Shown: positions 6,029 to 17,275 of the stretch, piece by piece
How the letters are laid out: every line of letters starts with the position of its first letter
Numbering within the stretch: position 1 is the stretch's first letter
Assembly (NCBI GenBank): GCA_037968415.1
Contig: JBBKVM010000136.1
Coordinates: 4,886 to 68,885 of the forward strand
DNA from: Bacteroidia bacterium
GTDB taxonomy: Bacteria > Bacteroidota > Bacteroidia > AKYH767-A > JBBKVM01
DNA length: 64,000 nt
Reading direction: 5' to 3'
Notes under the pieces: model-generated
What the model was told of the DNA's origin: nothing
Database searches by the model: none
What the model saw: the letters and a program-made list of their open reading frames with translations, nothing else
Translations under genes and position numbers: made by a program

Positions 6029-6832
6029 TTAGCTGACTAAAAACCAGTCGTTAAGCAGGTTTGGCTTGTTGTATCGCATTCGCTGCCTGCTTTCATAAAA
6101 CACTACAGATTTGCCCGCTGCTTCAATAATGGCTTGCCCCGCGGCTGTGTCCCACTCCATGGTGGGCGCCAATCGAGGGTATACATCGGCAGTTCCATCG
6201 GCAACCATGCACAACTTAAGTGAGCTACCGGCTGATACCAAGTCAACATTACCGTGTTCGCGCTCTAAATCTTGAATGAATAACCTTGTATCTTCTGACA
6301 TGTGCGACCGGGAGGCAATGGCTACAAAATTAGTGCGGGTGTGCGGCAGTGGCAATGAATTTGACAACGCAACCAATTGATTAAAGCTGTTGACATCGCT
6401 CAAATCATTTTTATTTGCATCAAACAAGAAACTTCCTGACTCTAAGCTGCCGAAATAATAAAGATTGCGGTGTGGCAAGGAAACCACGCCCAGTATTGGA
6501 TATCCATTTTGAATCAGTGCGATATTGACAGTAAACTCACCATTGCGTTTCACAAATTCTTTGGTGCCATCCAGTGGATCAACCATCCACAAAAACTCCC
6601 AATTCTTGCGCAATTCATATGGAATGTCTTTCCCTTCTTCGCTCAGCACAGGTATACCCGTGGTCGAAAGAAGCGCATCAATCACCATGTGGGCATTGGT
6701 GTCAGCTTCGGTGAGTGGCGAATTATCTGATTTGTGTTCAACTTCAAAGCTGGTGTTATATACCTGCATGATGGCGTTACCGGCCTGCGCGCAGGCTTTT
6801 ATTGAAATCCATAAAAGTTCAGAATGGTTCAT
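6029..6832 (-). CDS. cysQ: 3'(2'),5'-bisphosphate nucleotidase (PAP phosphatase), inositol-monophosphatase family
   Basis: 267 aa. IMPase-family motifs (WMVDPLDGTKEF; ..SLKLCMVADGTADVY). Adjacent to cysNDC. Confidence 0.8.
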   Translation of the reverse strand: MNHSELLWISIKACAQAGNAIMQVYNTSFEVEHKSDNSPLTEADTNAHMVIDALLSTTGIPVLSEEGKDIPYELRKNWEFLWMVDPLDGTKEFVKRNGEFTVNIALIQNGYPILGVVSLPHRNLYYFGSLESGSFLFDANKNDLSDVNSFNQLVALSNSLPLPHTRTNFVAIASRSHMSEDTRLFIQDLEREHGNVDLVSAGSSLKLCMVADGTADVYPRLAPTMEWDTAAGQAIIEAAGKSVVFYESRQRMRYNKPNLLNDWFLVS

Positions 6833-6833
6833 G

Positions 6834-8123
6834 TTAAATAATCATGCCGGCCCCCACCGTTTCGTGAGTGGATTCATCTACCAATATTATACTTCCCGTG
6901 ACCCTGTTTTTACGATAGCTATCTACAAACAATGGTACGGTGGTGCGCAAGTGCACACGCGCTATGTCGTTCATGCCAATTTCAGTTACGTCTTCAATTC
7001 GATGCAAAGTGTTGATGTCAATTTTATAGCGAATCTCTTTTACCATCACGCGGGCCTCGCGCGTGGTGTGCATCACCACAAGTTTTTGTCCCTGTATTAA
7101 ATTGTGGTCGCTGAGCCAGCAAACCATCACTTCTAAATCCTGGGTAACTGTTGGCATGTTATTTTCGCGAACTAACATATCTCCACGACTGATGTCCAAT
7201 TCGTCATTGAGTGTGACGGTTACTGACATAGGGGCAAATGCCTCTGCCTGCGGGCCTTCATAAGTGTCAATACTTTTGATGGTGGTGGTGAAACCTGATG
7301 GCAACGCCATCACTTTATCTCCGGGTTTAAAAATCCCACCCGCAATGCGCCCTGCATACCCTCGGTAATCATGATGCTCCGAAGTTTGTGGTCGTGACAC
7401 AATCTGTACCGGCAGACGGCAATCGATATGATTGTGATCACCACTTATGTGCACATGCTCCAACTGGTATAACAACGTGCTGCCTTCGTACCAATCCATA
7501 TTAGTTGATTTGTTGACAATGTTGTCACCATGCAATGCGCTGATGGGAACAAACTGTATGTCTTTTACATCTAATTTGGCGCTTAGCTTTTTGTACTCGC
7601 TCACTATCTCTTCATAGACTTGTTCATCGTAGTCTACCAAATCCATTTTGTTGATGCATACAATGATGTGCGGAATCTGCAACAACGAGGCAATAAATGA
7701 ATGACGATTTGTTTGCTCTACAATTCCCTTGCGCGCATCTATGAGTATCAAAGCCAGGTTGGCTGTAGAAGCACCTGTCACCATATTGCGTGTATACTGT
7801 ATGTGGCCGGGTGTATCAGCGATGATAAATTTTCTGCGCGGTGTGGCAAAGTAACGGTATGCTACGTCAATTGTGATTCCCTGCTCGCGCTCGGCTTTCA
7901 ACCCATCGGTGAGCAAGGCAAGGTCAACATGTTTCAATCCTTTTTGCAAGCTGGTGCGTTCGATGGCAGCCAACTGATCTGCAAAAATTGATTTGCTATC
8001 CAGCAACAAGCGACCTATGAGCGTACTCTTACCATCGTCTACGCTTCCGGCAGTGGTAAAGCGCAGCAACTCCATATTTTGCAATTGCGCGGGATTGTGT
8101 TGTTTCGTTTGCGTTTTCATCAA
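6834..8123 (-). CDS. cysN: Sulfate adenylyltransferase subunit 1 (GTPase)
   Basis: 429 aa. GTPase motifs TAGSVDDGKSTLIGRLL, DTPGH, NKMD. Followed by cysD with a 4-nt overlap. Confidence 0.9.
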   Translation of the reverse strand: MMKTQTKQHNPAQLQNMELLRFTTAGSVDDGKSTLIGRLLLDSKSIFADQLAAIERTSLQKGLKHVDLALLTDGLKAEREQGITIDVAYRYFATPRRKFIIADTPGHIQYTRNMVTGASTANLALILIDARKGIVEQTNRHSFIASLLQIPHIIVCINKMDLVDYDEQVYEEIVSEYKKLSAKLDVKDIQFVPISALHGDNIVNKSTNMDWYEGSTLLYQLEHVHISGDHNHIDCRLPVQIVSRPQTSEHHDYRGYAGRIAGGIFKPGDKVMALPSGFTTTIKSIDTYEGPQAEAFAPMSVTVTLNDELDISRGDMLVRENNMPTVTQDLEVMVCWLSDHNLIQGQKLVVMHTTREARVMVKEIRYKIDINTLHRIEDVTEIGMNDIARVHLRTTVPLFVDSYRKNRVTGSIILVDESTHETVGAGMII

Positions 8124-9025
8124 AAATATCCCTGCTTTTTACGGTCCTCCATTGCTGTTTCTGATCGTTTGTCATCCGTGCGACTGTCGCGTTCGGTTAC
8201 GGTGGTAGTGGCAATCTCTGCAATAATTTCGTCCAGTGAGTTGGCTTTGGAACTGATGGCTCCAGTGCAAGTCATGTCACCTACAGTACGAAATCTTACT
8301 TGCATCGGAGCTGGTTTTTCACCGTGGCGCAGAGAAATAAATTCTGAGTATGCAAGTATCCTGTCCTCTCTGATGATGCACTCGCGTTGATGTGTAAAAT
8401 ATACTTGAGGCAACTCTATTTTCTCGGTGGCTATGTATTGCCATATGTCCATTTCGGTCCAGTTGCTAAGTGGAAATATTCTGAAATGCTCACCCACATT
8501 TTTCTTACCATTAAAAATATTCCAGAGCTCTGGCCTTTGGTTTTTAGGATCCCATTGTCCAAATTCATCGCGGTGAGAAAAAAATCTTTCTTTGGCCCGT
8601 GCTTTTTCTTCATCCCGTCTGGCCCCGCCCATTGCCGCATCGGTTTTCAACTCTTCAATGGCATCCAGCAGAGTGGTTGTTTGCAACATGTTGCGGCTGG
8701 CATTGGCGCCCCGCTCCTCTCGCACACGGCCTTTATCTATGCTGTCCTGCACCTTTCGCACAATCAAATTAGCCTTCATCTTTTTTGCAATGGCATCGCG
8801 GTAAGCAATCACTTCTGGAAAATTATGACCAGTGTCTACATGCAACAACGGAAATGGAAATGGGGCCGGGTGAAAGGCTTTCATTGCCAGATGTGCCAGC
8901 ACAATGGAATCTTTACCTCCTGAAAAAAGTAATACCGGCCTTTGAAACTGGGCGGCTACTTCACGAATTACATAAATGGATTCTGACTCCAGTTCGCGCT
9001 GATGGGTGAGATTATAGGAATACAT
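8120..9025 (-). CDS. cysD: Sulfate adenylyltransferase subunit 2
   Basis: 301 aa. PAPS-reductase-like PP-loop VLLFSGGKDSIVLAHLA. Confidence 0.9.
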   Translation of the reverse strand: MYSYNLTHQRELESESIYVIREVAAQFQRPVLLFSGGKDSIVLAHLAMKAFHPAPFPFPLLHVDTGHNFPEVIAYRDAIAKKMKANLIVRKVQDSIDKGRVREERGANASRNMLQTTTLLDAIEELKTDAAMGGARRDEEKARAKERFFSHRDEFGQWDPKNQRPELWNIFNGKKNVGEHFRIFPLSNWTEMDIWQYIATEKIELPQVYFTHQRECIIREDRILAYSEFISLRHGEKPAPMQVRFRTVGDMTCTGAISSKANSLDEIIAEIATTTVTERDSRTDDKRSETAMEDRKKQGYF

Positions 9026-9042
9026 GAATACTATTTGAAACG

Positions 9043-9654
9043 CTAATTTTTTATCTTTTTAAGCACATAATTTGCAACCATGCCGGCACTTTCAGCGATG
9101 CTCAATGAATGTGTATCTATTTCTATTTCTGCATTTGAAGGTGCTTCATACGGGGCACTGACTCCGGTGAACGACTCAATGAGGCCTGCGCGCGCTTTGG
9201 CATAAAGCCCTTTCACATCGCGCTCCTCACACACTTCCAACGGACAGTTTACGAATACTTCAATAAACTCATCGACAGACACCAATTCACGCACTCTGGC
9301 CCGCTCAGCTGCCGATGGTGATATAAAGGAAGACAACACTACCACTCCTGCATCAACAAACAACTTAGCCACTTGCCCCACACGCCTTATATTCTCATCT
9401 CTATCTGCTTCACTAAACCCAAGATCGCTGTTGAGCCCCATCCGCAAATTATCTCCATCCAGCAGATAGGTGTGTATATTTTGGGCATGCAGCATTTCTT
9501 CCACCGCACCGGCCACCGTTGATTTGCCTGACCCTGATAATCCGGTAAACCACACTATTGCCGGTTTGTGCCCAGACTGTGCAATTCTTTCAGCTTTGGA
9601 CACCGGATGATGGTGCGCAAAAATATTTCTTTTTTCGTTCATTCTATCAAGCAA
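9043..9654 (-). CDS. cysC: Adenylyl-sulfate (APS) kinase
   Basis: 203 aa. P-loop [15 protein letters not shown] and LDGDNLR motif. Confidence 0.9.
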
Positions 9655-11416
9655 GTCCGTACAAAAATACCAACATTGTCACAGTAACAATAAAAGCAAT
9701 CAAATTCATAGGTATACCCACTCGTAAAAAATCTTTGAAGTGATATCCACCGGGACCATAAATCATAAGATTTGTTTGATATCCAAACGGTGTGGCAAAA
9801 CTGGCCGAACCTGCAAATGCTACTGCCAAAACAAATGGCTTGGGATCTACTCCCAAGCTGTGCGCAGCGACCACAGCCACAGGAAACACAATAGAGGCGG
9901 CAGCCGCATTGGTAATAAGTTCAGTGAGTAACGTGGTAAGTATGTAAATACCTGCCAACACACCTATAACTCCAAAAGGAGCGAACCAGCCCAAAATGTG
10001 CGATGACATCACTTCTGCCAATCCACTGTTGATAATGGCTTTGCTCAGCGCAATGGCCATCGCAAGTACCAATACAAGATCAAAATCAACGTGCTTTCTT
10101 ATTTCCGCAAAATTGATAATCTTCGCTAACAAACAGATCACCACCAGCAAAAACAAAGATTGAAACAATGGCATCAATTGGAACGTGGACATCAAGATGG
10201 CAATGAATGTACCCCCTATCACCAGTGCTGACGCAGCCTTGTCAACTCTCTTTATTTCTTTCACTTTTGAGATTAGGTAAAGGTCGCGCGAGTTTCGCAT
10301 GCGAGTAAAAAAATCTTTTCCGGTGATGAGCAATATCAAGTCGCCCGCGCGCAGTGTGATTTCTCCAAGCTTTCCGCTTATTCGCTCTCCATCACGATGA
10401 ATGGCTACAATGGCACCATCGAACACACCTCTAAAATCAGTGTCGTTTACTACTTTGCCCACCAGACTTGAATTGCTGGAAACCACTACCTCCACTACTT
10501 CTACTGCATCGCGACCATTTAAATTACTTGCGCTCGGCAGTTGCAAATCCTGACTTTCTTTTAAAAGATCTGCCACCGTTTCAGTAGCGCCAGCAAATAT
10601 GAGTATGTCATTTTCTTCAATCACATCCGAAGGCCCCACGGGTGCAATCTTATAATCCTTGCGCACAATTTCTACCAGAAACAATCCTGTGAGATGACGC
10701 AACTGTGCCTTCTCTACCATCTTACCTATGTAAGTGGATCCGGCCGGCACCACCGTTTCAACAAGGTACTCTCGTGAATGCGATTTAAATTCATCAATCA
10801 CATCTGCACGCTCGGGCAAGAGGCGATGACCGAATAGCAAAAGGAAAATAAATCCAATTACCATCAATGGCAAACCAATCAGCGTAAAATCAAACATGTA
10901 CAACGGCTCAAGCCCCGACTCGGTGGCCAGTCCGTTTACAATCAAATTGGTGCTGGTGCCTATTAAAGTGAGCGTGCCACCTAAAATAGTAGCATAAGAC
11001 AGTGGGATGAGTAATCGCGATGGGCTAATGCCTTTGCGCTTGCCAAGCTGGGTAATGTAGGGCATAAGTATGGCCACCAGCGGGGTGTTGTTTACAAAAC
11101 CCGACACACTACCCGAACTGAACATAATGCGCGCGAGCAACGCACGGTATGACAATTGCCCTTTGGTGAACTTCTTAAATATATATTCGATGAGACCAGT
11201 CTTCTGAATAATACCCGCTACGATGAGGAGCATTACTATGACAGCTATTTCTTTATTGGCAAATCCGGCAAGCGACTCCTCAGGAGTCAGAATTCCTGCC
11301 AGATTAAATACAACCACACAACACATCAATATCATCACCGGACGCATCCAGTTTTTGTACAGCACTACCACCAGCATAGCAAGCGATAGCAACACGATAA
11401 TTGATGATGAATTCAT
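9647..11416 (-). CDS. SLC13/DASS-family anion permease with two central TrkA-C domains (putative sulfate transporter)
   Basis: 589 aa, ATG start. Multi-pass hydrophobic N- and C-terminal halves with a soluble central segment. Overlaps cysC by 8 nt, which suggests translational coupling. Confidence 0.75.
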
Positions 11417-11510
11417 GCCCGGTAGAAAAAATTACTTGAAAAGAATTATTCGTGCCAGTGTTATTCCGCCAAAGATAACATTTGGGGCATGTCGGCCACA
11501 TTAAAAAACA

Positions 11511-12500
11511 TTAAAATCCGATGGGATGCCAGGTGGTCTTTATCTCTTGAAATTTCATGATAAAATAAGGCGACTGACCCTGCGCGCTGTTCCACTTAAT
11601 ATCTTTCGTTATAATTGCCCTTTTTACATTGTCCGCTGCATTTGTTTGCACAAGTTTTGCATGTTCGGCTACATTGCCGCAGTACCACACTGCGTTCACA
11701 TCCATGTGCAAAGAGAAATGGCCGGCCAGTTCTTTTTCAAAACCGGTAATCAAATTAACCACGCCCGCAGGCAGGTCGGAAGAATGAAGCACTTCAGCAA
11801 ACGAAATGGCCGGTGCAGGAGCTCCTTCGGGAGCCAATACTACACAGGTATTGCCACCTGCAATAATAGGTGCTATCACCGATATCAAACCTAATAGCCC
11901 TGAGGCAGGCGGGGCTATCGCGGCCACCACTCCGGTAGGTTCCGGTACCGAAAAATTAAAATGTGATGACTCAACAGGATTTACACTACTAAATAACTGA
12001 ATAAACTTATCGGTCCAACCGGCATAATGGATAAGCCGATCAATGGATTGCTCAACCTGCAGCGATGCTTCGCGCGCGCTCAAGCCCGACCATTGTAACT
12101 CTGCCACAAACTGCTCGCTACGCCCTTCAAGCACCTCAGCCATCCGATACAATATTTGCCCGCGGTTGTAAGCCGACTTATCCGCCCATCCCTGCTGGGC
12201 CTTGCGCGCGGCCACCACAGCATCGCGAAAATCTTTGCGACTGCCGTGACACATATTGGCCACGTTTTTACCCTGCCCATCTTTGAACACAAAATAATGT
12301 CCCGATTCGGTGCGAGGAAATTTACCATCGATGTACAACTTATACGTTTTCAATACTTTCAACCGCTCGCTATTCGCTTTGCCCGAGCCGTTCACAGAGA
12401 CTCCATTGGAGGCTGCTTTTTTTATAGTTTCTTCTTTAGTGTTCTTATCCATTGTATTAATAATCTCAATATTATTATTCCATTGCTTGAAGGTATGCAT
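11511..12500 (-). CDS. Aldehyde-dehydrogenase-like protein, NAD-binding/N-terminal portion only; no catalytic Cys/Glu region
   Basis: 329 aa. It aligns by eye with the upstream full ALDH through the ..GNTCVVLAPEGAPAPAISFAEV..LPAGVVNLITG.. Rossmann region, then ends where the ELGGK / FxNxGQxCxAxSR catalytic motifs should be. Only 94 nt separate its stop from the next gene, so a frameshifted remnant of a full ALDH is unlikely. An alternative start lies at 12452 (MDKNTKEET). Confidence 0.6.
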   Translation of the reverse strand: MHTFKQWNNNIEIINTMDKNTKEETIKKAASNGVSVNGSGKANSERLKVLKTYKLYIDGKFPRTESGHYFVFKDGQGKNVANMCHGSRKDFRDAVVAARKAQQGWADKSAYNRGQILYRMAEVLEGRSEQFVAELQWSGLSAREASLQVEQSIDRLIHYAGWTDKFIQLFSSVNPVESSHFNFSVPEPTGVVAAIAPPASGLLGLISVIAPIIAGGNTCVVLAPEGAPAPAISFAEVLHSSDLPAGVVNLITGFEKELAGHFSLHMDVNAVWYCGNVAEHAKLVQTNAADNVKRAIITKDIKWNSAQGQSPYFIMKFQEIKTTWHPIGF

Positions 12501-13956
12501 CTAGTCCGTGCAGCCCGCCTTCGCGCCCCACGCCACTTTCTTTGTATCCGCCAAAAGGAGAGGTCGGGTCAAACTTGTTGTATGTATTGGCCCATACTAC
12601 TCCTGCTTTCAGATTGGAGGTAACTTTAAATATGCGTGAGCCTTTGTCGGTCCACACACCACCCGACAAACCATAGGGTGTGTTGTTAGCTTTTTCAATC
12701 GCTTCATCCACCGTGCGGAATGTCTGAATGGCCAACACAGGTCCAAAAATTTCTTCCTGCACAATGCGGCTCGACTGTGCCACCCCGGTGAAAAGAGTTG
12801 GTCTAAACCAATAGCCTTTCTTTGGCAATGCGCACGAAGACTGCCACATTTCTCCGCCTTCGTCCACGCCAATTTTCACCAGCTCTTTTATTTTGTTGAG
12901 TTGCATCTTGCTGTTGATGGCACCTATGTCGGTGTTCTTATCAAGCGGGCTGCCTACTATCAAAGTTTCAATCCGATCTTTGAGTTTGCGAATCACTTTG
13001 GGCGCCACACTCTCCTGAACAAACAGGCGTGAGCCCGCGCAACATACATGCCCTTGATTAAAAAATATTCCGTTTATAATTCCTTCTACCGCCTGATCAA
13101 TGGCAGCATCTTCGAATATTATGTTGGCTGCTTTACCACCCAACTCAAGTGTATATTTCTTGTCGGTTCCGGCCAACGCGCGTTGGATTTTTTTTCCTAC
13201 ATCGGTGCTACCGGTAAATGCAATTTTGTGGATGCCTGGATGGTTGACGATGGCCGCACCTGTGGCACCCGCCCCGGTTACAATATTTACAACACCTGCG
13301 GGCAAGCCCGCGTCTTGCATTATCTCAGCAAGCAACAGTGCAGTGAGGGGTGTAGTTTCAGCAGGTTTCAACACTACCGTATTGCCGGCAGCCAGCGCAG
13401 GGGCAATTTTCCAGGCAGCCATCAGCAACGGAAAATTCCAGGGAATAATCTGTCCGGCCACACCCAGTGATTGGGCCTTTCGACCCGGAAATGCAAACTC
13501 AAGTTTATCGGCCCAACCGGCATAATAGAAAAAATGCGCGGCCGCCAATGGAATATCAATGTCGCGCGATTCGCGAATTGGTTTGCCCCCATCCATGGAT
13601 TCCACTATGGATAACTCGCGTGCGCGCTCTTGCATCATTCGTGCGATGCGGTAAATGTATTTGGCTCGTTCCGATGGTTTCATCTTAGACCACACATTGT
13701 CATATGCAGTTCGTGCGGCTTTTACCGCCTTGTCTACATCGGCAGCGTTGGCATCGGCCACCATCGCCAGTTTAGCTTCGGTTGATGGATTGATGGTCTC
13801 AAAATATTTGCCACTTGAAGGAGCCACAAATTTACCGTTGATAAAATGGTCGTACTTGTCTTTGAGTTTTATGTTGCCCGTGCTTTCGGGCGCAGGCGCG
13901 TAACTCCAGTCGGTATCGAAATTGAGCGTTACGTTATTATCTTTTTTCTTCTTCAT
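12475..13956 (-). CDS. NAD(P)-dependent aldehyde dehydrogenase
   Basis: 493 aa. Complete ALDH motifs: GNTVVLKPAETTPLTAL, LELGGKA (catalytic Glu), FFNQGHVCCAGSRLF (catalytic Cys), EEIFGPV. Confidence 0.9.
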   Translation of the reverse strand: MKKKKDNNVTLNFDTDWSYAPAPESTGNIKLKDKYDHFINGKFVAPSSGKYFETINPSTEAKLAMVADANAADVDKAVKAARTAYDNVWSKMKPSERAKYIYRIARMMQERARELSIVESMDGGKPIRESRDIDIPLAAAHFFYYAGWADKLEFAFPGRKAQSLGVAGQIIPWNFPLLMAAWKIAPALAAGNTVVLKPAETTPLTALLLAEIMQDAGLPAGVVNIVTGAGATGAAIVNHPGIHKIAFTGSTDVGKKIQRALAGTDKKYTLELGGKAANIIFEDAAIDQAVEGIINGIFFNQGHVCCAGSRLFVQESVAPKVIRKLKDRIETLIVGSPLDKNTDIGAINSKMQLNKIKELVKIGVDEGGEMWQSSCALPKKGYWFRPTLFTGVAQSSRIVQEEIFGPVLAIQTFRTVDEAIEKANNTPYGLSGGVWTDKGSRIFKVTSNLKAGVVWANTYNKFDPTSPFGGYKESGVGREGGLHGLDAYLQAME

Positions 13957-13987
13957 TACAGATGGTTGAAGTGTGCGGAAATAATTT

Positions 13988-14911
13988 TTAGTCTTTTGAG
14001 AAATAGTCGATAGACTGATAAGCGCCTGTTTGCGATTTCATTAACTGCATGAGCAAGTCATTGGCCAATGCGCTGGCCCCAAAGCGAAAGTAATCTGCAT
14101 GCAGCCATGCGTTGCCCAGCGTTTCGCGCACCATTACCAAATACTGCAATGCAATTTTTGAAGTACTGATGCCTCCTGCCGGTTTCATGCCAATCATTTT
14201 TCCGGTGTTGTAGTAATGATCGCGTATGGTTTCGAGCATCACCAGTGTGACAGGAAGTGTGGCCGCGGGCTGCACCTTGCCCGTAGATGTTTTTATAAAA
14301 TCGGCTCCCGCATGTATGGCCAGCTCGCTGGCTTTTCGCACATTATCAAGTGTGGTGAGTTCACCTGTTTCCAATATTACTTTCAGGTGTGCCTCGCCAC
14401 AGGCTTCTTTCACTGCGGCTATTTCATCAAATACAAAATTGTATTCACCGGTAAGAAAACGGCCACGACTAATCACCATATCAATTTCATCTGCGCCTTC
14501 GCCCACGGCCCAACGCGTTTCTGTCAGTTTAAACTTAAGATTTGACATACCGCTGGGAAATGCAGTGGCCACAGATGCCACATGTATCAGCGACCCTTTG
14601 AGCGCCTCGCGTGCGATCTTCACCATATTGGGGTACACACACACAGCTGCTACGGCAGGCACATCCAATGTTTCGTGAGGTCGTTTGGCTTTGGCGCACA
14701 GTTGTTTCACCTTGCCCGGTGTATCGCGCGCCTCCAGCGTGGTGAGGTCTATCATCGACATGGCCATTTTGAGCGCATGCACTTTCGAATCGGTTTTGAT
14801 GCTACGCTTGCACAGCCTCGCCACCCGTTCTTCCACACCTACCTGATCTATAGGTGTTACAAATTGCTGATCAAACAAACCGGTTGGTTTGCTTATCGCT
14901 GCTTTTTTCAT
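13988..14911 (-). CDS. deoC: Deoxyribose-phosphate aldolase (long form)
   Basis: MSMIDLTTLE.., GADEIDMVI, and FIKTSTGK with the Schiff-base Lys. I chose the start at ATG 14911 (MKKAAISK). The track's longer ORF (to 14998) would run through a terminator hairpin that belongs to the upstream tonB gene. Confidence 0.8.
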   Translation of the reverse strand: MKKAAISKPTGLFDQQFVTPIDQVGVEERVARLCKRSIKTDSKVHALKMAMSMIDLTTLEARDTPGKVKQLCAKAKRPHETLDVPAVAAVCVYPNMVKIAREALKGSLIHVASVATAFPSGMSNLKFKLTETRWAVGEGADEIDMVISRGRFLTGEYNFVFDEIAAVKEACGEAHLKVILETGELTTLDNVRKASELAIHAGADFIKTSTGKVQPAATLPVTLVMLETIRDHYYNTGKMIGMKPAGGISTSKIALQYLVMVRETLGNAWLHADYFRFGASALANDLLMQLMKSQTGAYQSIDYFSKD

Positions 14912-14928
14912 TTCAAAATTCTTTTGTC

Positions 14929-14936
14929 CAAAGTTA
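14929..14936 (-). promoter_or_regulatory. Candidate Bacteroidota -7 box (TAACTTTG on the minus strand) for a deoC-ALDH transcript
   Basis: CAAAGTTA on the plus strand is TAnnTTTG on the minus strand. Its 3' edge (14929) lies 17 nt upstream of the deoC ATG (14911), immediately downstream of a terminator. Confidence 0.25.
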
Positions 14937-14959
14937 AGGAATAATTGGCCACCGAAAAG

Positions 14960-14995
14960 CAACAAAAAAGCGCCAGCCATGCGAGGCTGACGCTT
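14960..14995 (-). terminator. Rho-independent terminator downstream of tonB (15014)
   Basis: Minus-strand RNA: AAGCGUCAGCC-ucgcau-GGCUGGCGCUU followed by UUUUGUUGCUUUU. The stem is perfect (one G.U) only in the minus-strand sense. Confidence 0.55.
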
Positions 14996-15013
14996 CATTC
15001 CGGGAATGTTTAT

Positions 15014-15739
15014 TTACCGGGTTGAGATTCTTATTGGCAGGGTATATATTACCGATACCTTTTGATCGCGCTGCTCGCCAGCGGTCCACACCGGCATATT
15101 GTTCAGCACATTCAAGGCCATCTGGTCAACACCAAAACCCAATGAGTTTTTCAGTTTCACATCGCGCACTTTGCCATCAGCACCCACTACAAAAGTGGTA
15201 TAAAGGGTTCCGTTAACTTTATTCCTGAGTGCTTCATCGGGTATCCGGATATTTTTCTGCAAATACTCCATCAGCGTGGCAATCGAACAATCATTTCGTG
15301 CTTTTTCGCTTCCTCGATTATTGCAACCCTTGAAAACAGGCATGCGCTCTACACTCACAAAAGGCAAGTCATTACCCGGCACATATGGCTCAACAATGGG
15401 TGGCAAGTCTATCAGCAACGAGTCATGGGCGGGTGCAACTGTGGGGTCTGGGTGCGTGTTGGCAACCTGACGAAAACGATCATCAATTGGCTGTGGCTTA
15501 CTAATTTTTTCGAGCTTAAATTTTGGTGGCTCTGGCGTCTTGGGTGGGTCCGTGCGCGTAACAGGAATCATTAGTAAGTCTTCGGTACCTGGCTCCAAAT
15601 TCCAAACAATGGGCGCAGCTATGCGCGTGGTCCAGCTAAAAGCCAGAATAATAACCAATGATGAAACAATGTATCCGATGCGGATAAATACAGGGCGCTG
15701 TTGTTCCAGCTTGCCGGCAGATCTTTTTTGCTTTTCCAT
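15014..15739 (-). CDS. TonB-family energy transducer (C-terminal TonB domain)
   Basis: N-terminus MEKQKR.. plus a TM helix, paralogous to the gene at 16568-17275. Pro/Lys-rich spacer. C-terminal ..FKGC..TLPIRI TonB fold. Start placed at ATG 15739 by homology with its paralog; the track ORF extends to 15808. Confidence 0.7.
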   Translation of the reverse strand: MEKQKRSAGKLEQQRPVFIRIGYIVSSLVIILAFSWTTRIAAPIVWNLEPGTEDLLMIPVTRTDPPKTPEPPKFKLEKISKPQPIDDRFRQVANTHPDPTVAPAHDSLLIDLPPIVEPYVPGNDLPFVSVERMPVFKGCNNRGSEKARNDCSIATLMEYLQKNIRIPDEALRNKVNGTLYTTFVVGADGKVRDVKLKNSLGFGVDQMALNVLNNMPVWTAGEQRDQKVSVIYTLPIRISTR

Positions 15740-15940
15740 GAGATAGGTTTTGTTGGTTTTATTAATTAGATGCAGACACCCTTTATTTTCCATACTATGC
15801 TTTTGCATAACGGTTTAACCATTCTTTTTATTTGTCAAATGACGAAATGAGCTTTTTTCTGCCATAACTCTATTTCCTTTTGCGCATTATTATTGATAAA
15901 TTGACTTTTTCAACAACTAAAACCAATAATTACAAATACC

Positions 15941-16495
15941 ATGAAAAAGTTATTTATCACTTTTATTCTATGTGCACCCGTTGCATTGTTTGCACAAAAA
16001 GCTTCCATTCAGAAAGACATTTCGAGCATGTTGGCTTTCAATCAACAACAGATTTCGTCATTGGCACAAACCATACCTGCCGAAAAATATGATTGGCGTC
16101 CTGCCGATGGGGTGCGGTCTGTTGCCGAAGTTGTCCTACACATAGCTGAGGCAAACTATGGCTTATTAGCCAGCATGGGTATAAACCCACCTGATGGTAT
16201 AAATATTAAGGAGTTGAGCACCATCAGCACTGAAAAAGAAGAGTGTATCGAAATTATGAATCGATCTTTTAAATTCGCCACCGAACAAGTAAAAAACTTT
16301 CCAGAAAAAAATCTCAGCGAAAATGTGAAATTACCTTTCGGTGAATTTAACAAGCAAAGTGTTTTGCTCATCATGCTTGATCATTCGGGCGAACACAAAG
16401 GCCAACTGATTGCCTACGCGCGCATGAACGACATTACTCCTCCCTGGACAGCAGCCAAACAAAAAAAGGATACAGAAAAAGGAGATAAATATTAA
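15941..16495 (+). CDS. Secreted DinB/YfiT-like (DinB_2) family protein
   Basis: 184 aa. Signal peptide MKKLFITFILCAPVALFAQ. Remainder is helical-bundle-like with a His-containing motif (VVLHIAEANYG; DHSGEHKGQ). Confidence 0.55.
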   Translation: MKKLFITFILCAPVALFAQKASIQKDISSMLAFNQQQISSLAQTIPAEKYDWRPADGVRSVAEVVLHIAEANYGLLASMGINPPDGINIKELSTISTEKEECIEIMNRSFKFATEQVKNFPEKNLSENVKLPFGEFNKQSVLLIMLDHSGEHKGQLIAYARMNDITPPWTAAKQKKDTEKGDKY

Positions 16496-16567: not shown

Positions 16568-17275
16568 TTACTTCAATGTAAATCGAACCGGCAAGTTGTA
16601 TTGAACAGAGACTGCGCGTCCGCGCTGCTGGCCTGGCCCCCACTTGGGCATTGATTTTACAGCTCTCACTGCTTCCTCGTCCAATCCACCTCCTACGCCA
16701 CGCAATATTTTTACATCCTTCACGGTGCCACTGTTATCGATTACAAATGTAACGTATACAGTACCTGTGATTCCATTATCCTTGGCCATAGGAGGATATA
16801 CCACAGTACGGCCAAGAAACTCTTGAATCTTGTTATAGGTGCAACTTGTACGCTGCTCTTCAGACCCTGCATTCTCGCAACCTTTAAATGAAGGCATGCG
16901 CTCCACAATGGTAAAAATTTCTGGCTCTAATGGTCCTTCTTCTTTCTTTGGCTCAATTACTATGATTTTGGTTTCTTGCGTTACTTCTGTCTCTGCAATT
17001 TTCACATCCTCTTTTATTACCACATCATCTTTCACAATTTCAATCTCTGTGGCAGGAGGCGGAGGAGGAGGTGGTGGCTTCTCTTGCTTGGTGATGGGAA
17101 TAATTTCCTCAGGCACATCATCCATTTTCAATTGCCCCAAGTCGAAATCATTTTTGTCATATGATTTCCATTGGAACGCAAGTATCACAACAAGCAGCGC
17201 AAGTACAAGCCCTATTTGGGCATACATGCTCCTGTTTTTCTCCAGGTCTGCTTTTTCATTTTTACGCTTTTCCAT
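16568..17275 (-). CDS. TonB-family protein with poly-proline spacer
   Basis: 235 aa. MEKRKNEK.., TM helix, PPPPPPPPP spacer, and C-terminal TonB domain ..FKGCENAGSE..YNLPVRFTLK. Confidence 0.75.
   Translation of the reverse strand: MEKRKNEKADLEKNRSMYAQIGLVLALLVVILAFQWKSYDKNDFDLGQLKMDDVPEEIIPITKQEKPPPPPPPPATEIEIVKDDVVIKEDVKIAETEVTQETKIIVIEPKKEEGPLEPEIFTIVERMPSFKGCENAGSEEQRTSCTYNKIQEFLGRTVVYPPMAKDNGITGTVYVTFVIDNSGTVKDVKILRGVGGGLDEEAVRAVKSMPKWGPGQQRGRAVSVQYNLPVRFTLK
17051..17078 (-). repeat. GGN/CCN trinucleotide-like tract encoding the poly-Pro linker of TonB
   Basis: ggcaggaggcggaggaggaggtggtggc on the plus strand is Pro9 on the minus strand. A simple-sequence tract that could slip. Confidence 0.8.

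Follow-up and report, generated by a model that had tools for sequence, protein, structure and literature searches.

Within the aldehyde dehydrogenase (ALDH) superfamily, ALDH16 is the branch that is least understood, as regards both its physiological substrate and the role of its extra domain. The human member, ALDH16A1, is a pseudoenzyme that has been linked to gout. Aldolase-dehydrogenase pairs that handle acetaldehyde are represented by DmpFG and BphIJ. Canonical ALDH16 proteins are single polypeptides of about 750 to 830 amino acids (aa). In reviews, their C-terminal domain is described as a cofactor-binding domain that is not functional and that imitates, by its contacts within the chain, the quaternary contacts of ALDHs, and the ALDH16 dimer as a mimic of the classic ALDH tetramer (PMC8160307, PMC12041015); according to one of them, the domain apparently binds no nucleotides (PMC12041015). 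SPU microcompartments pair deoxyribose-phosphate aldolase (DERA) with an aldehyde dehydrogenase and dispose in this way of toxic acetaldehyde (PMC11585597). Here we analyzed a stretch of 64,000 nucleotides (nt) from a Bacteroidia bacterium (contig JBBKVM010000136.1, positions 4,886 to 68,885, forward strand; the whole stretch is referred to as the window). On its minus strand, deoC is followed by two genes that appear to encode the catalytic module and the C-terminal domain of ALDH16 as separate proteins. A sequence-only reading of the window had noticed the three genes but missed the known family, ALDH16.

That deoC, a full ALDH gene, and a short ALDH-like gene are consecutive on the minus strand was borne out: their longest open reading frames (ORFs) encode 336, 493, and 329 aa, respectively (Table 1). 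The 493-aa protein matches PF00171 over positions 2 to 458 of 461, which is the whole profile, and has the equivalents of Asn169, Lys192, Glu268 (in the ELGGK motif), Cys302, and Glu399; the catalytic Glu and Cys with which it had been credited are thus both present. Its best match in the PDB is the ALDH16 structure 6MVR, residues 11 to 475 (E value of 2e-160, 538 bits, compared to 446 bits for the next family), and it is 49 to 52% identical to the N-modules of the fused ALDH16 proteins P0249 and P0202. Based on these best hits, and not on a full phylogeny, the protein can be assigned to the ALDH16 clade (cd07111-type) as its N-terminal module. The best PDB match of the short protein lies in the same chain, the 767-aa ALDH16 of Loktanella, where it covers residues 500 to 766 (HMMER, E value of 4e-60). 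Because the two proteins match 6MVR colinearly, the locus can be considered a two-gene ALDH16, in which the short protein would be the free-standing C-terminal domain, composed of a degenerate Rossmann fold and a beta-flap.

The short protein had been thought to keep only the N-terminal, NAD-binding portion of an ALDH. Its match to PF00171 is indeed confined to positions 9 to 233 of 461, and the stretch with the ELGGK and Cys motifs is missing. The description as an N-terminal portion did not hold, as the last 35 or so residues can be aligned to the beta-strand at the extreme C terminus of ALDH16 (QEIKTTWHPIG versus TEVKTIWVPYG). Because the 6MVR match extends to this last strand, a simple N-terminal fragment is excluded. 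The alignment identifies the short protein as an ALDH in which the catalytic domain has been deleted internally, and not as a truncated one; the Rossmann domain and the beta-flap are kept. No catalytic half is hidden downstream of the gene, because only 94 nt separate its stop codon from the next gene. An AlphaFold2 model built from 60 homologs (pLDDT of 83) points to the same family. When it was used in a Foldseek search, three ALDH16 structures came out on top, with a TM-score of 0.82 over 292 columns, and ordinary ALDHs scored about 0.75 over about 250 columns. Residues 1 to 33 are disordered in the model and may be the remnant of a linker, as would be expected from where the linker between the domains lies in fused proteins.

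To see which functional residues remain, the short protein was aligned to the neighboring ALDH for 60 family members, using ALDH2 numbering. The Lys192 equivalent, a contact of the NAD ribose, is Leu in 60 of 60 members, and the Gly250 equivalent, which is involved in NAD binding, is Ala or Ser. Trp168 and Asn169, the latter a residue of the oxyanion hole, are lost or variable. The entire segment that holds Glu268, Cys302, and Glu399 (catalysis and NAD ribose binding) is absent in all 60, and the PF00171 alignment revealed no catalytic Cys or Glu that had been overlooked. As a result, the short protein should be unable to act as a dehydrogenase on its own. A role as a subunit that senses NAD(H) or regulates the ALDH, which had been among the earlier suggestions, would fit the retained ALDH-type Rossmann fold and the Glu195 equivalent, which is kept in about half of the family. 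It agrees poorly with the substitutions at Lys192 and Gly250, the loss of Trp168 and Asn169, and a variable Ser246 equivalent, and the homologous ALDH16 domain has been reported not to bind nucleotides (PMC12041015), so that we consider such a role very unlikely.

The partner ALDH shows a different pattern. The equivalents of Asn169, Lys192, Gly245, Gly250, Glu268, Cys302, Glu399, and Phe401 are kept in 67 of 67 sequences (66 orthologs and the window enzyme), and the orthologs are 71 to 83% identical to the window enzyme, across phyla. In this respect the ALDH of the split locus is unlike mammalian ALDH16A1. In the family alignment of the short protein, the mean column identity is 67%. Invariant columns are about twice as frequent in the beta-flap strands (residues 150 to 172 and 295 to 310; 19 of 39 columns) as elsewhere (54 of 241), a pattern that would be expected of a flap that serves as the working interface.

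The length of 329 aa given for the short protein is correct for the longest ORF, but the real protein is probably shorter. NCBI calls a protein of 313 aa (P0001, 100% identity), none of the 19 aligned homologs begins before Met17, and none of them has a counterpart of residues 1 to 16. The probable start of the gene is Met17 (ATG at 12452). Because this start leaves 22 nt between the two genes, their 26-nt overlap disappears; it had been taken as evidence for translational coupling and is probably a start-codon artifact of using the longest ORF. Even without this overlap, close spacing of the ALDH and short genes is typical of the family: many Woeseiaceae have overlaps of 1 to 4 nt or spacers of 2 nt, and in Bacteroidota the distance is mostly tens of nt.

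The two-gene form is widespread. A search of representative proteins with the short protein gave 474 clusters (50% identity) at an E value of 1e-30 or lower. The best 150 of these are mostly stand-alone proteins of 260 to 320 aa, and they include nine fused proteins of 744 to 1154 aa that match in their last 280 or so residues. Named stand-alone members carry labels such as "aldehyde dehydrogenase family protein." The ALDH16-like protein P0250 (1154 aa) has about 400 extra N-terminal residues before its ALDH module and no catalytic Cys. In a scan of one genome per species, at least 593 stretches encode a relative of the short protein, and the best 80 were used for a survey of loci. They belong to Chitinophagales, Flavobacteriales, Saprospiraceae, Woeseiaceae, Steroidobacteraceae, Marinimicrobia, and Balneolaceae. 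An ALDH16-type ALDH lies upstream on the same strand in 65 of the 69 loci with at least 2 kb of upstream sequence, and in 65 of these 65 the ALDH and the short gene are separate ORFs with an intervening stop codon, with varying frames and spacers. The Nei-Gojobori dN/dS ratio is 0.14 for the short gene (median of 362 pairs) and 0.076 for the ALDH. The short gene is under purifying selection and is not decaying. The earlier view that an intact, selected, non-catalytic paralog is kept beside its catalytic partner was therefore upheld, and a recent pseudogene is excluded.

These data also bear on the explanation that the split is an artifact or an accident, i.e., that a fused ALDH16 gene was broken by a frameshift or a sequencing error, or that the short gene is a truncated duplicate in decay. 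The longest ORFs in the window overlap in different frames, much like the product of a frameshift, and frameshifted fused genes do occur (L100 and L160). The frameshifts in these two lie within the N-module and not at the domain boundary; they are probably sequencing errors or pseudogenes. The intervening stop codon in all 65 pairs, the varying frames and spacers, inserted genes of 0.3 to 1.3 kb, and the dN/dS ratio all argue against an artifact, as does a rough neighbor-joining tree of 101 representatives (no bootstrap), in which eight fused forms make up one clade and the stand-alone forms another. We regard a pseudogene or frameshift as refuted by the 80-locus survey, the dN/dS ratio, and the tree, and an accidental split has almost no probability left. 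The inserts are found in ten loci, where the spacer between the ALDH and the short gene is 0.3 to 1.3 kb long and holds additional ORFs. They were considered as an extra component of the system and rejected, since on inspection, with no family search, their sequences look like unrelated small selfish genes. Those at L030, L031, L055, L061, and L065 and at L024, L035, L001, and L076 resemble four-helix-bundle/23S-IVS, toxin-antitoxin-like, HNH-like, and GxxExxY-type proteins. Selfish genes appear to use this spacer as a landing site, and it follows from the inserts that the two cistrons can tolerate being separated.

The gene that opens the unit encodes DERA. Its product scores 195 bits against TIGR00126 (cutoff, 117.3) and matches PF01791, and structures of E. 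coli DERA match residues 40 to 290 (E value of 7e-53). It carries the lysine motifs FIKTSTGK and KPAGG and the aspartate motif EID, equivalent to Lys167, Lys201, and Asp102 in an alignment with E. coli DERA, and the PDB matches to E. coli DERA agree with this alignment. Because a terminator-like hairpin sits within the longest deoC ORF and is followed by TAACTTTG 17 nt before an ATG at 14911, this ATG is the most likely start of deoC (307 aa), which would then open a transcription unit. TAACTTTG matches the Bacteroidetes -7 promoter consensus, TAnnTTTG. The window DeoC is of a long type, with about 40 extra N-terminal residues compared to E. coli DERA, and this form is also encoded by the deoC genes of L081, L083, L084, and L085. 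A comparison with human DERA (318 aa), which serves here as a lead and not as a test, gives identities of 54 to 61%, over nearly its full length, with the DeoC proteins beside fused bacterial ALDH16, of 48% with the window DeoC, and of 38% with E. coli DERA. If this is correct, the aldolase linked to ALDH16 would be the animal-type long DERA.

The functional tie between DeoC and the ALDH pair, which had been proposed from the order of the three genes, is strongly supported by synteny. Of the 64 split loci with enough sequence, 55 have deoC upstream and on the same strand. For the fused form, deoC is directly upstream in all four prokaryotic representatives that were looked up; two other fused representatives are intron-containing eukaryotic genes. 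A metagenome scan seeded with fused C-terminal domains yielded 80 loci, of which 66 are fused, 2 are frameshifted in the N-module, and 12 are cut by the contig end. Among the fused loci with at least 950 nt of upstream sequence, deoC is on the same strand in 40 of 41 and within 200 nt in 34, and all catalytic residues are strictly conserved in the 66 fused loci. The pairing of deoC and ALDH16 is near-universal in the prokaryotic sets examined, split or fused.

In our opinion, the most probable explanation, which we hold with fairly high confidence, is that the window encodes a split ALDH16 together with an aldolase, that the short protein is a structural pseudo-enzyme subunit, and that the complex oxidizes the aldehyde released by DeoC. 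DeoC splits 2-deoxyribose-5-phosphate, giving glyceraldehyde-3-phosphate and acetaldehyde, and the ALDH16 complex would most likely oxidize the released aldehyde, most simply acetaldehyde to acetate. By homology with fused ALDH16, the short subunit may dock on the catalytic subunit like the second protomer of a classic ALDH dimer, with its beta-flap placed against the catalytic domain of the partner. A pair of such ALDH-short heterodimers could then assemble into an α2β2 particle mimicking the tetramer of classic ALDHs. Of the roles suggested in the sequence-only reading, a partner in a hetero-oligomer is hence the one that fits best, given that the short protein is a homolog of the ALDH16 C-terminal domain, which packs like a second protomer in the crystal. 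Compared to classic ALDH homodimers and tetramers (ALDH1 and ALDH2), the fold of the NAD domain is the same, and the beta-flap is predicted to have the same role between subunits. The short subunit differs in having no catalytic domain, nucleophile, general base, or key NAD contacts, and the complex would have half of the active sites.

Several points weigh against this explanation. The physical heteromer, its stoichiometry, and its substrate are inferred, and no other deo or nucleoside genes are adjacent to the unit in the window. For the only ALDH16 that has been characterized, the assays were run on medium-chain aldehydes, for example hexanal (PMC12041015). Three fused prokaryotic ALDH16 proteins behind deoC (L081, 1338 to 3656; L084, 939 to 3401; L085, 4507 to 6741) lack catalytic residues: P0206 has no Cys and has Asp in place of Asn and Ile in place of Lys, P0264 has no Cys, and P0207 has Thr in place of Asn and Ala in place of Glu268. 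Moreover, 4 of the 69 close loci (L049, L050, L071, and L078) have no adjacent ALDH. The distant stand-alone members are also less regular. At L091 an ALDH is directly upstream, at L087 and L088 the ALDH is on the opposite strand and there is no deoC, and at L089 and L090 neither gene is found within 6 kb. Because some family members have no adjacent ALDH, the partnership is not obligatorily in cis. The stand-alone homolog at L089 (930 to 1871) and L090 (1123 to 2064), P0158 (313 aa), has neither an ALDH nor deoC on its contig. It adjoins an ORF12-like gene of the beta-lactamase fold and, on the longer contig L089, is also near two clpP genes. P0158 may have its partner in trans, or may act on its own.

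The members that have no ALDH beside them (L049, L050, L071, L078, L089, and L090) could also mean that the short protein is in general independent of the neighboring ALDH, for example because it binds another partner, and that the adjacency is a relic of a tandem duplication. As mentioned, partners can be encoded in trans. In Bacteroidota, Gammaproteobacteria, Marinimicrobia, and Balneolaceae alike, the two genes have stayed adjacent, and gene fusion has recurrently occurred with exactly this ALDH clade; a relic would not persist in this way. We therefore give very little credit to an independent role of the family as a whole.

The three proteins without catalytic residues raise a further question. 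Since these deoC-adjacent fused forms have lost catalytic residues, the link with deoC cannot rest on aldehyde oxidation alone. L081, L084, and L085 give the impression of bacterial ALDH16 pseudoenzymes whose tie to DERA has persisted, and part of the partnership with DERA may be non-catalytic, for example docking or regulation. This can be taken further. The short protein, or the whole of ALDH16, could mainly be a docking or channeling partner with which DeoC would form a DERA-ALDH complex, so that acetaldehyde is passed on or sequestered or DERA is regulated, with oxidation being secondary or dispensable, an alternative that partly overlaps with our preferred explanation. The near-universal deoC linkage of both split and fused forms would fit such a role, and so would the very strongly conserved surface motifs of the short family. 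P0206, P0264, and P0207, directly behind deoC, have lost Cys, Asn, or Glu, as has mammalian ALDH16A1 (PMC8160307, PMC12041015), and the related C-terminal domain of type B PutA has been associated with substrate channeling (PMC12041015). On the other hand, the contact with DeoC is a conjecture, some family members have no deoC nearby, and the strict conservation of the catalytic residues in the clade of the window and in the 66 fused metagenome loci indicates that catalysis matters there. We consider it rather unlikely that docking is the main function, and oxidation by a complex with a structural subunit is the explanation that we prefer. A broader possibility, still doubtful and put forward tentatively, is that ALDH16, whether split or fused, active or dead, has from ancient times been dedicated to the long animal-type DERA as its partner and that the two form a physical or functional module for the breakdown of 2-deoxyribose-5-phosphate, in which the Rossmann/beta-flap domain would serve for assembly or docking.

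How should the locus be classified? The short protein has the same degenerate Rossmann and beta-flap domain without a catalytic domain that is present in Loktanella ALDH16 (PDB 6MVR, 6MVS, and 6MVU) and in human ALDH16A1, and the deoC neighborhood is common to the fused bacterial forms and the split locus. What differs is the single polypeptide: here and in the 65 relatives with an upstream ALDH, the two halves are separate cistrons (spacer of 22 nt in the window and up to 1.3 kb in relatives), the stand-alone proteins form a large clade of their own, and the assembly must be intermolecular. The system would work like ALDH16, to both halves of which it is orthologous, and we file it as a split variant and not as a canonical member. 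The C-terminal domain of type B and C PutA is likewise a Rossmann domain of ALDH origin; it binds no NAD and replaces the dimer partner of the catalytic ALDH module (PMC12041015), as is predicted for the short protein. The PutA domain is fused to PRODH and P5CDH modules, belongs to another ALDH clade, and has no deoC context, whereas the domain described here is unfused. No PutA chain is among the 60 PDB sequence matches listed for the short protein, and the window has no PRODH or P5CDH context. In the SPU modules, an acetaldehyde-releasing aldolase is likewise encoded beside the dehydrogenase that removes the acetaldehyde (PMC11585597). The dehydrogenases of SPU and of DmpFG and BphIJ are CoA-acylating and are encapsulated or tunnel-linked, whereas here the enzyme is a hydrolytic-type ALDH16 and there are no shell genes.

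The position of TATCTTTG, in the spacer downstream of the short gene, is the probable boundary of the deoC-ALDH16 unit. An Rfam scan of positions 9000 to 16000 found no RNA element, and on this basis a leader RNA or riboswitch was ruled out. The genes that follow on the downstream side encode an SLC13/CitMHS permease with TrkA_C domains and then cysC, cysD, cysN, and a cysQ-like phosphatase of the inositol-monophosphatase family. Together these genes look like a compact operon for sulfate uptake and 3'-phosphoadenosine-5'-phosphosulfate (PAPS) synthesis. The unit had been seen as continuing into these sulfate-activation genes. The survey did not support such a link, as cysC follows the short gene in 4 of 80 loci (L003, L005, L010, and L066), which are among the closest relatives of the window by ALDH identity, and the -7-like motif TATCTTTG lies in between. 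We read this adjacency as positional and lineage-specific and not as functional. Further genes on either side are included in Table 1.

Table 1. Positions in the window of the deoC-ALDH16 unit, its putative boundaries, and neighboring genes
Feature	Position	Strand	Basis or remark
TonB-C-terminal-like protein with proline-rich linker	16568-17275	-	Upstream, same strand
TonB-C-terminal-like protein with proline-rich linker	15014-15808	-	Upstream, same strand; ends at the hairpin 14996-14967
Terminator-like hairpin, 12 bp followed by a T-run	14967-14996	-	Ends the upstream TonB-like gene; upstream boundary of the unit
TAACTTTG, match to the Bacteroidetes -7 consensus	14929-14936	-	17 nt before the deoC ATG; motif match only
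deoC, DERA, 307 aa	13988-14911	-	PF01791 and TIGR00126; longest ORF 13988-14998
Predicted ALDH16-type catalytic subunit, complete NAD(P)-dependent aldehyde dehydrogenase, 493 aa	12475-13956	-	PF00171, 6MVR
AT-rich spacer, 22 nt	12453-12474	-	From the ALDH stop to the probable start of the short gene (Met17)
Predicted stand-alone ALDH16 C-terminal-domain homolog, 313 aa	11511-12452	-	Longest ORF 11511-12500 (329 aa)
TATCTTTG, Bacteroidetes -7-like motif	11470-11477	-	In the 94-nt spacer before the SLC13/cysCDNQ genes; motif match only
SLC13/CitMHS permease with two TrkA_C domains	9647-11416	-	Overlaps cysC by 8 nt
Remaining sulfate genes (cysC, cysD, cysN, cysQ-like)	6029-9654	-
ORF of 542 aa	4377-6005	-	Flanked by the cysQ-like gene and a GDP-mannose dehydratase/epimerase pair; Pfam gave no match at E <= 1e-4

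In the literature that we searched, which did not include the primary structure paper, so that a prior mention is possible, no paper was found on a two-gene ALDH16 or on a genomic link between ALDH16 and deoC/DERA. Searches for ALDH16 together with deoC, DERA, or deoxyribose-phosphate aldolase returned proteomics lists or nothing. The split form of bacteria may be ancestral and correspond to the tandem duplicate that existed before the genes were fused. Its wide distribution offers a direct test of the role of the extra domain, which in the two-gene form can be expressed, deleted, and titrated apart from the catalytic module. The linkage with deoC suggests that ALDH16 handles an aldehyde that results from the cleavage of deoxyribose-5-phosphate, which provides a pathway hypothesis for an orphan family. 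If the ancient partnership with DERA considered above is true from bacteria to animals, the orphan, gout-associated ALDH16A1 would be placed in deoxynucleoside catabolism, alongside DERA.

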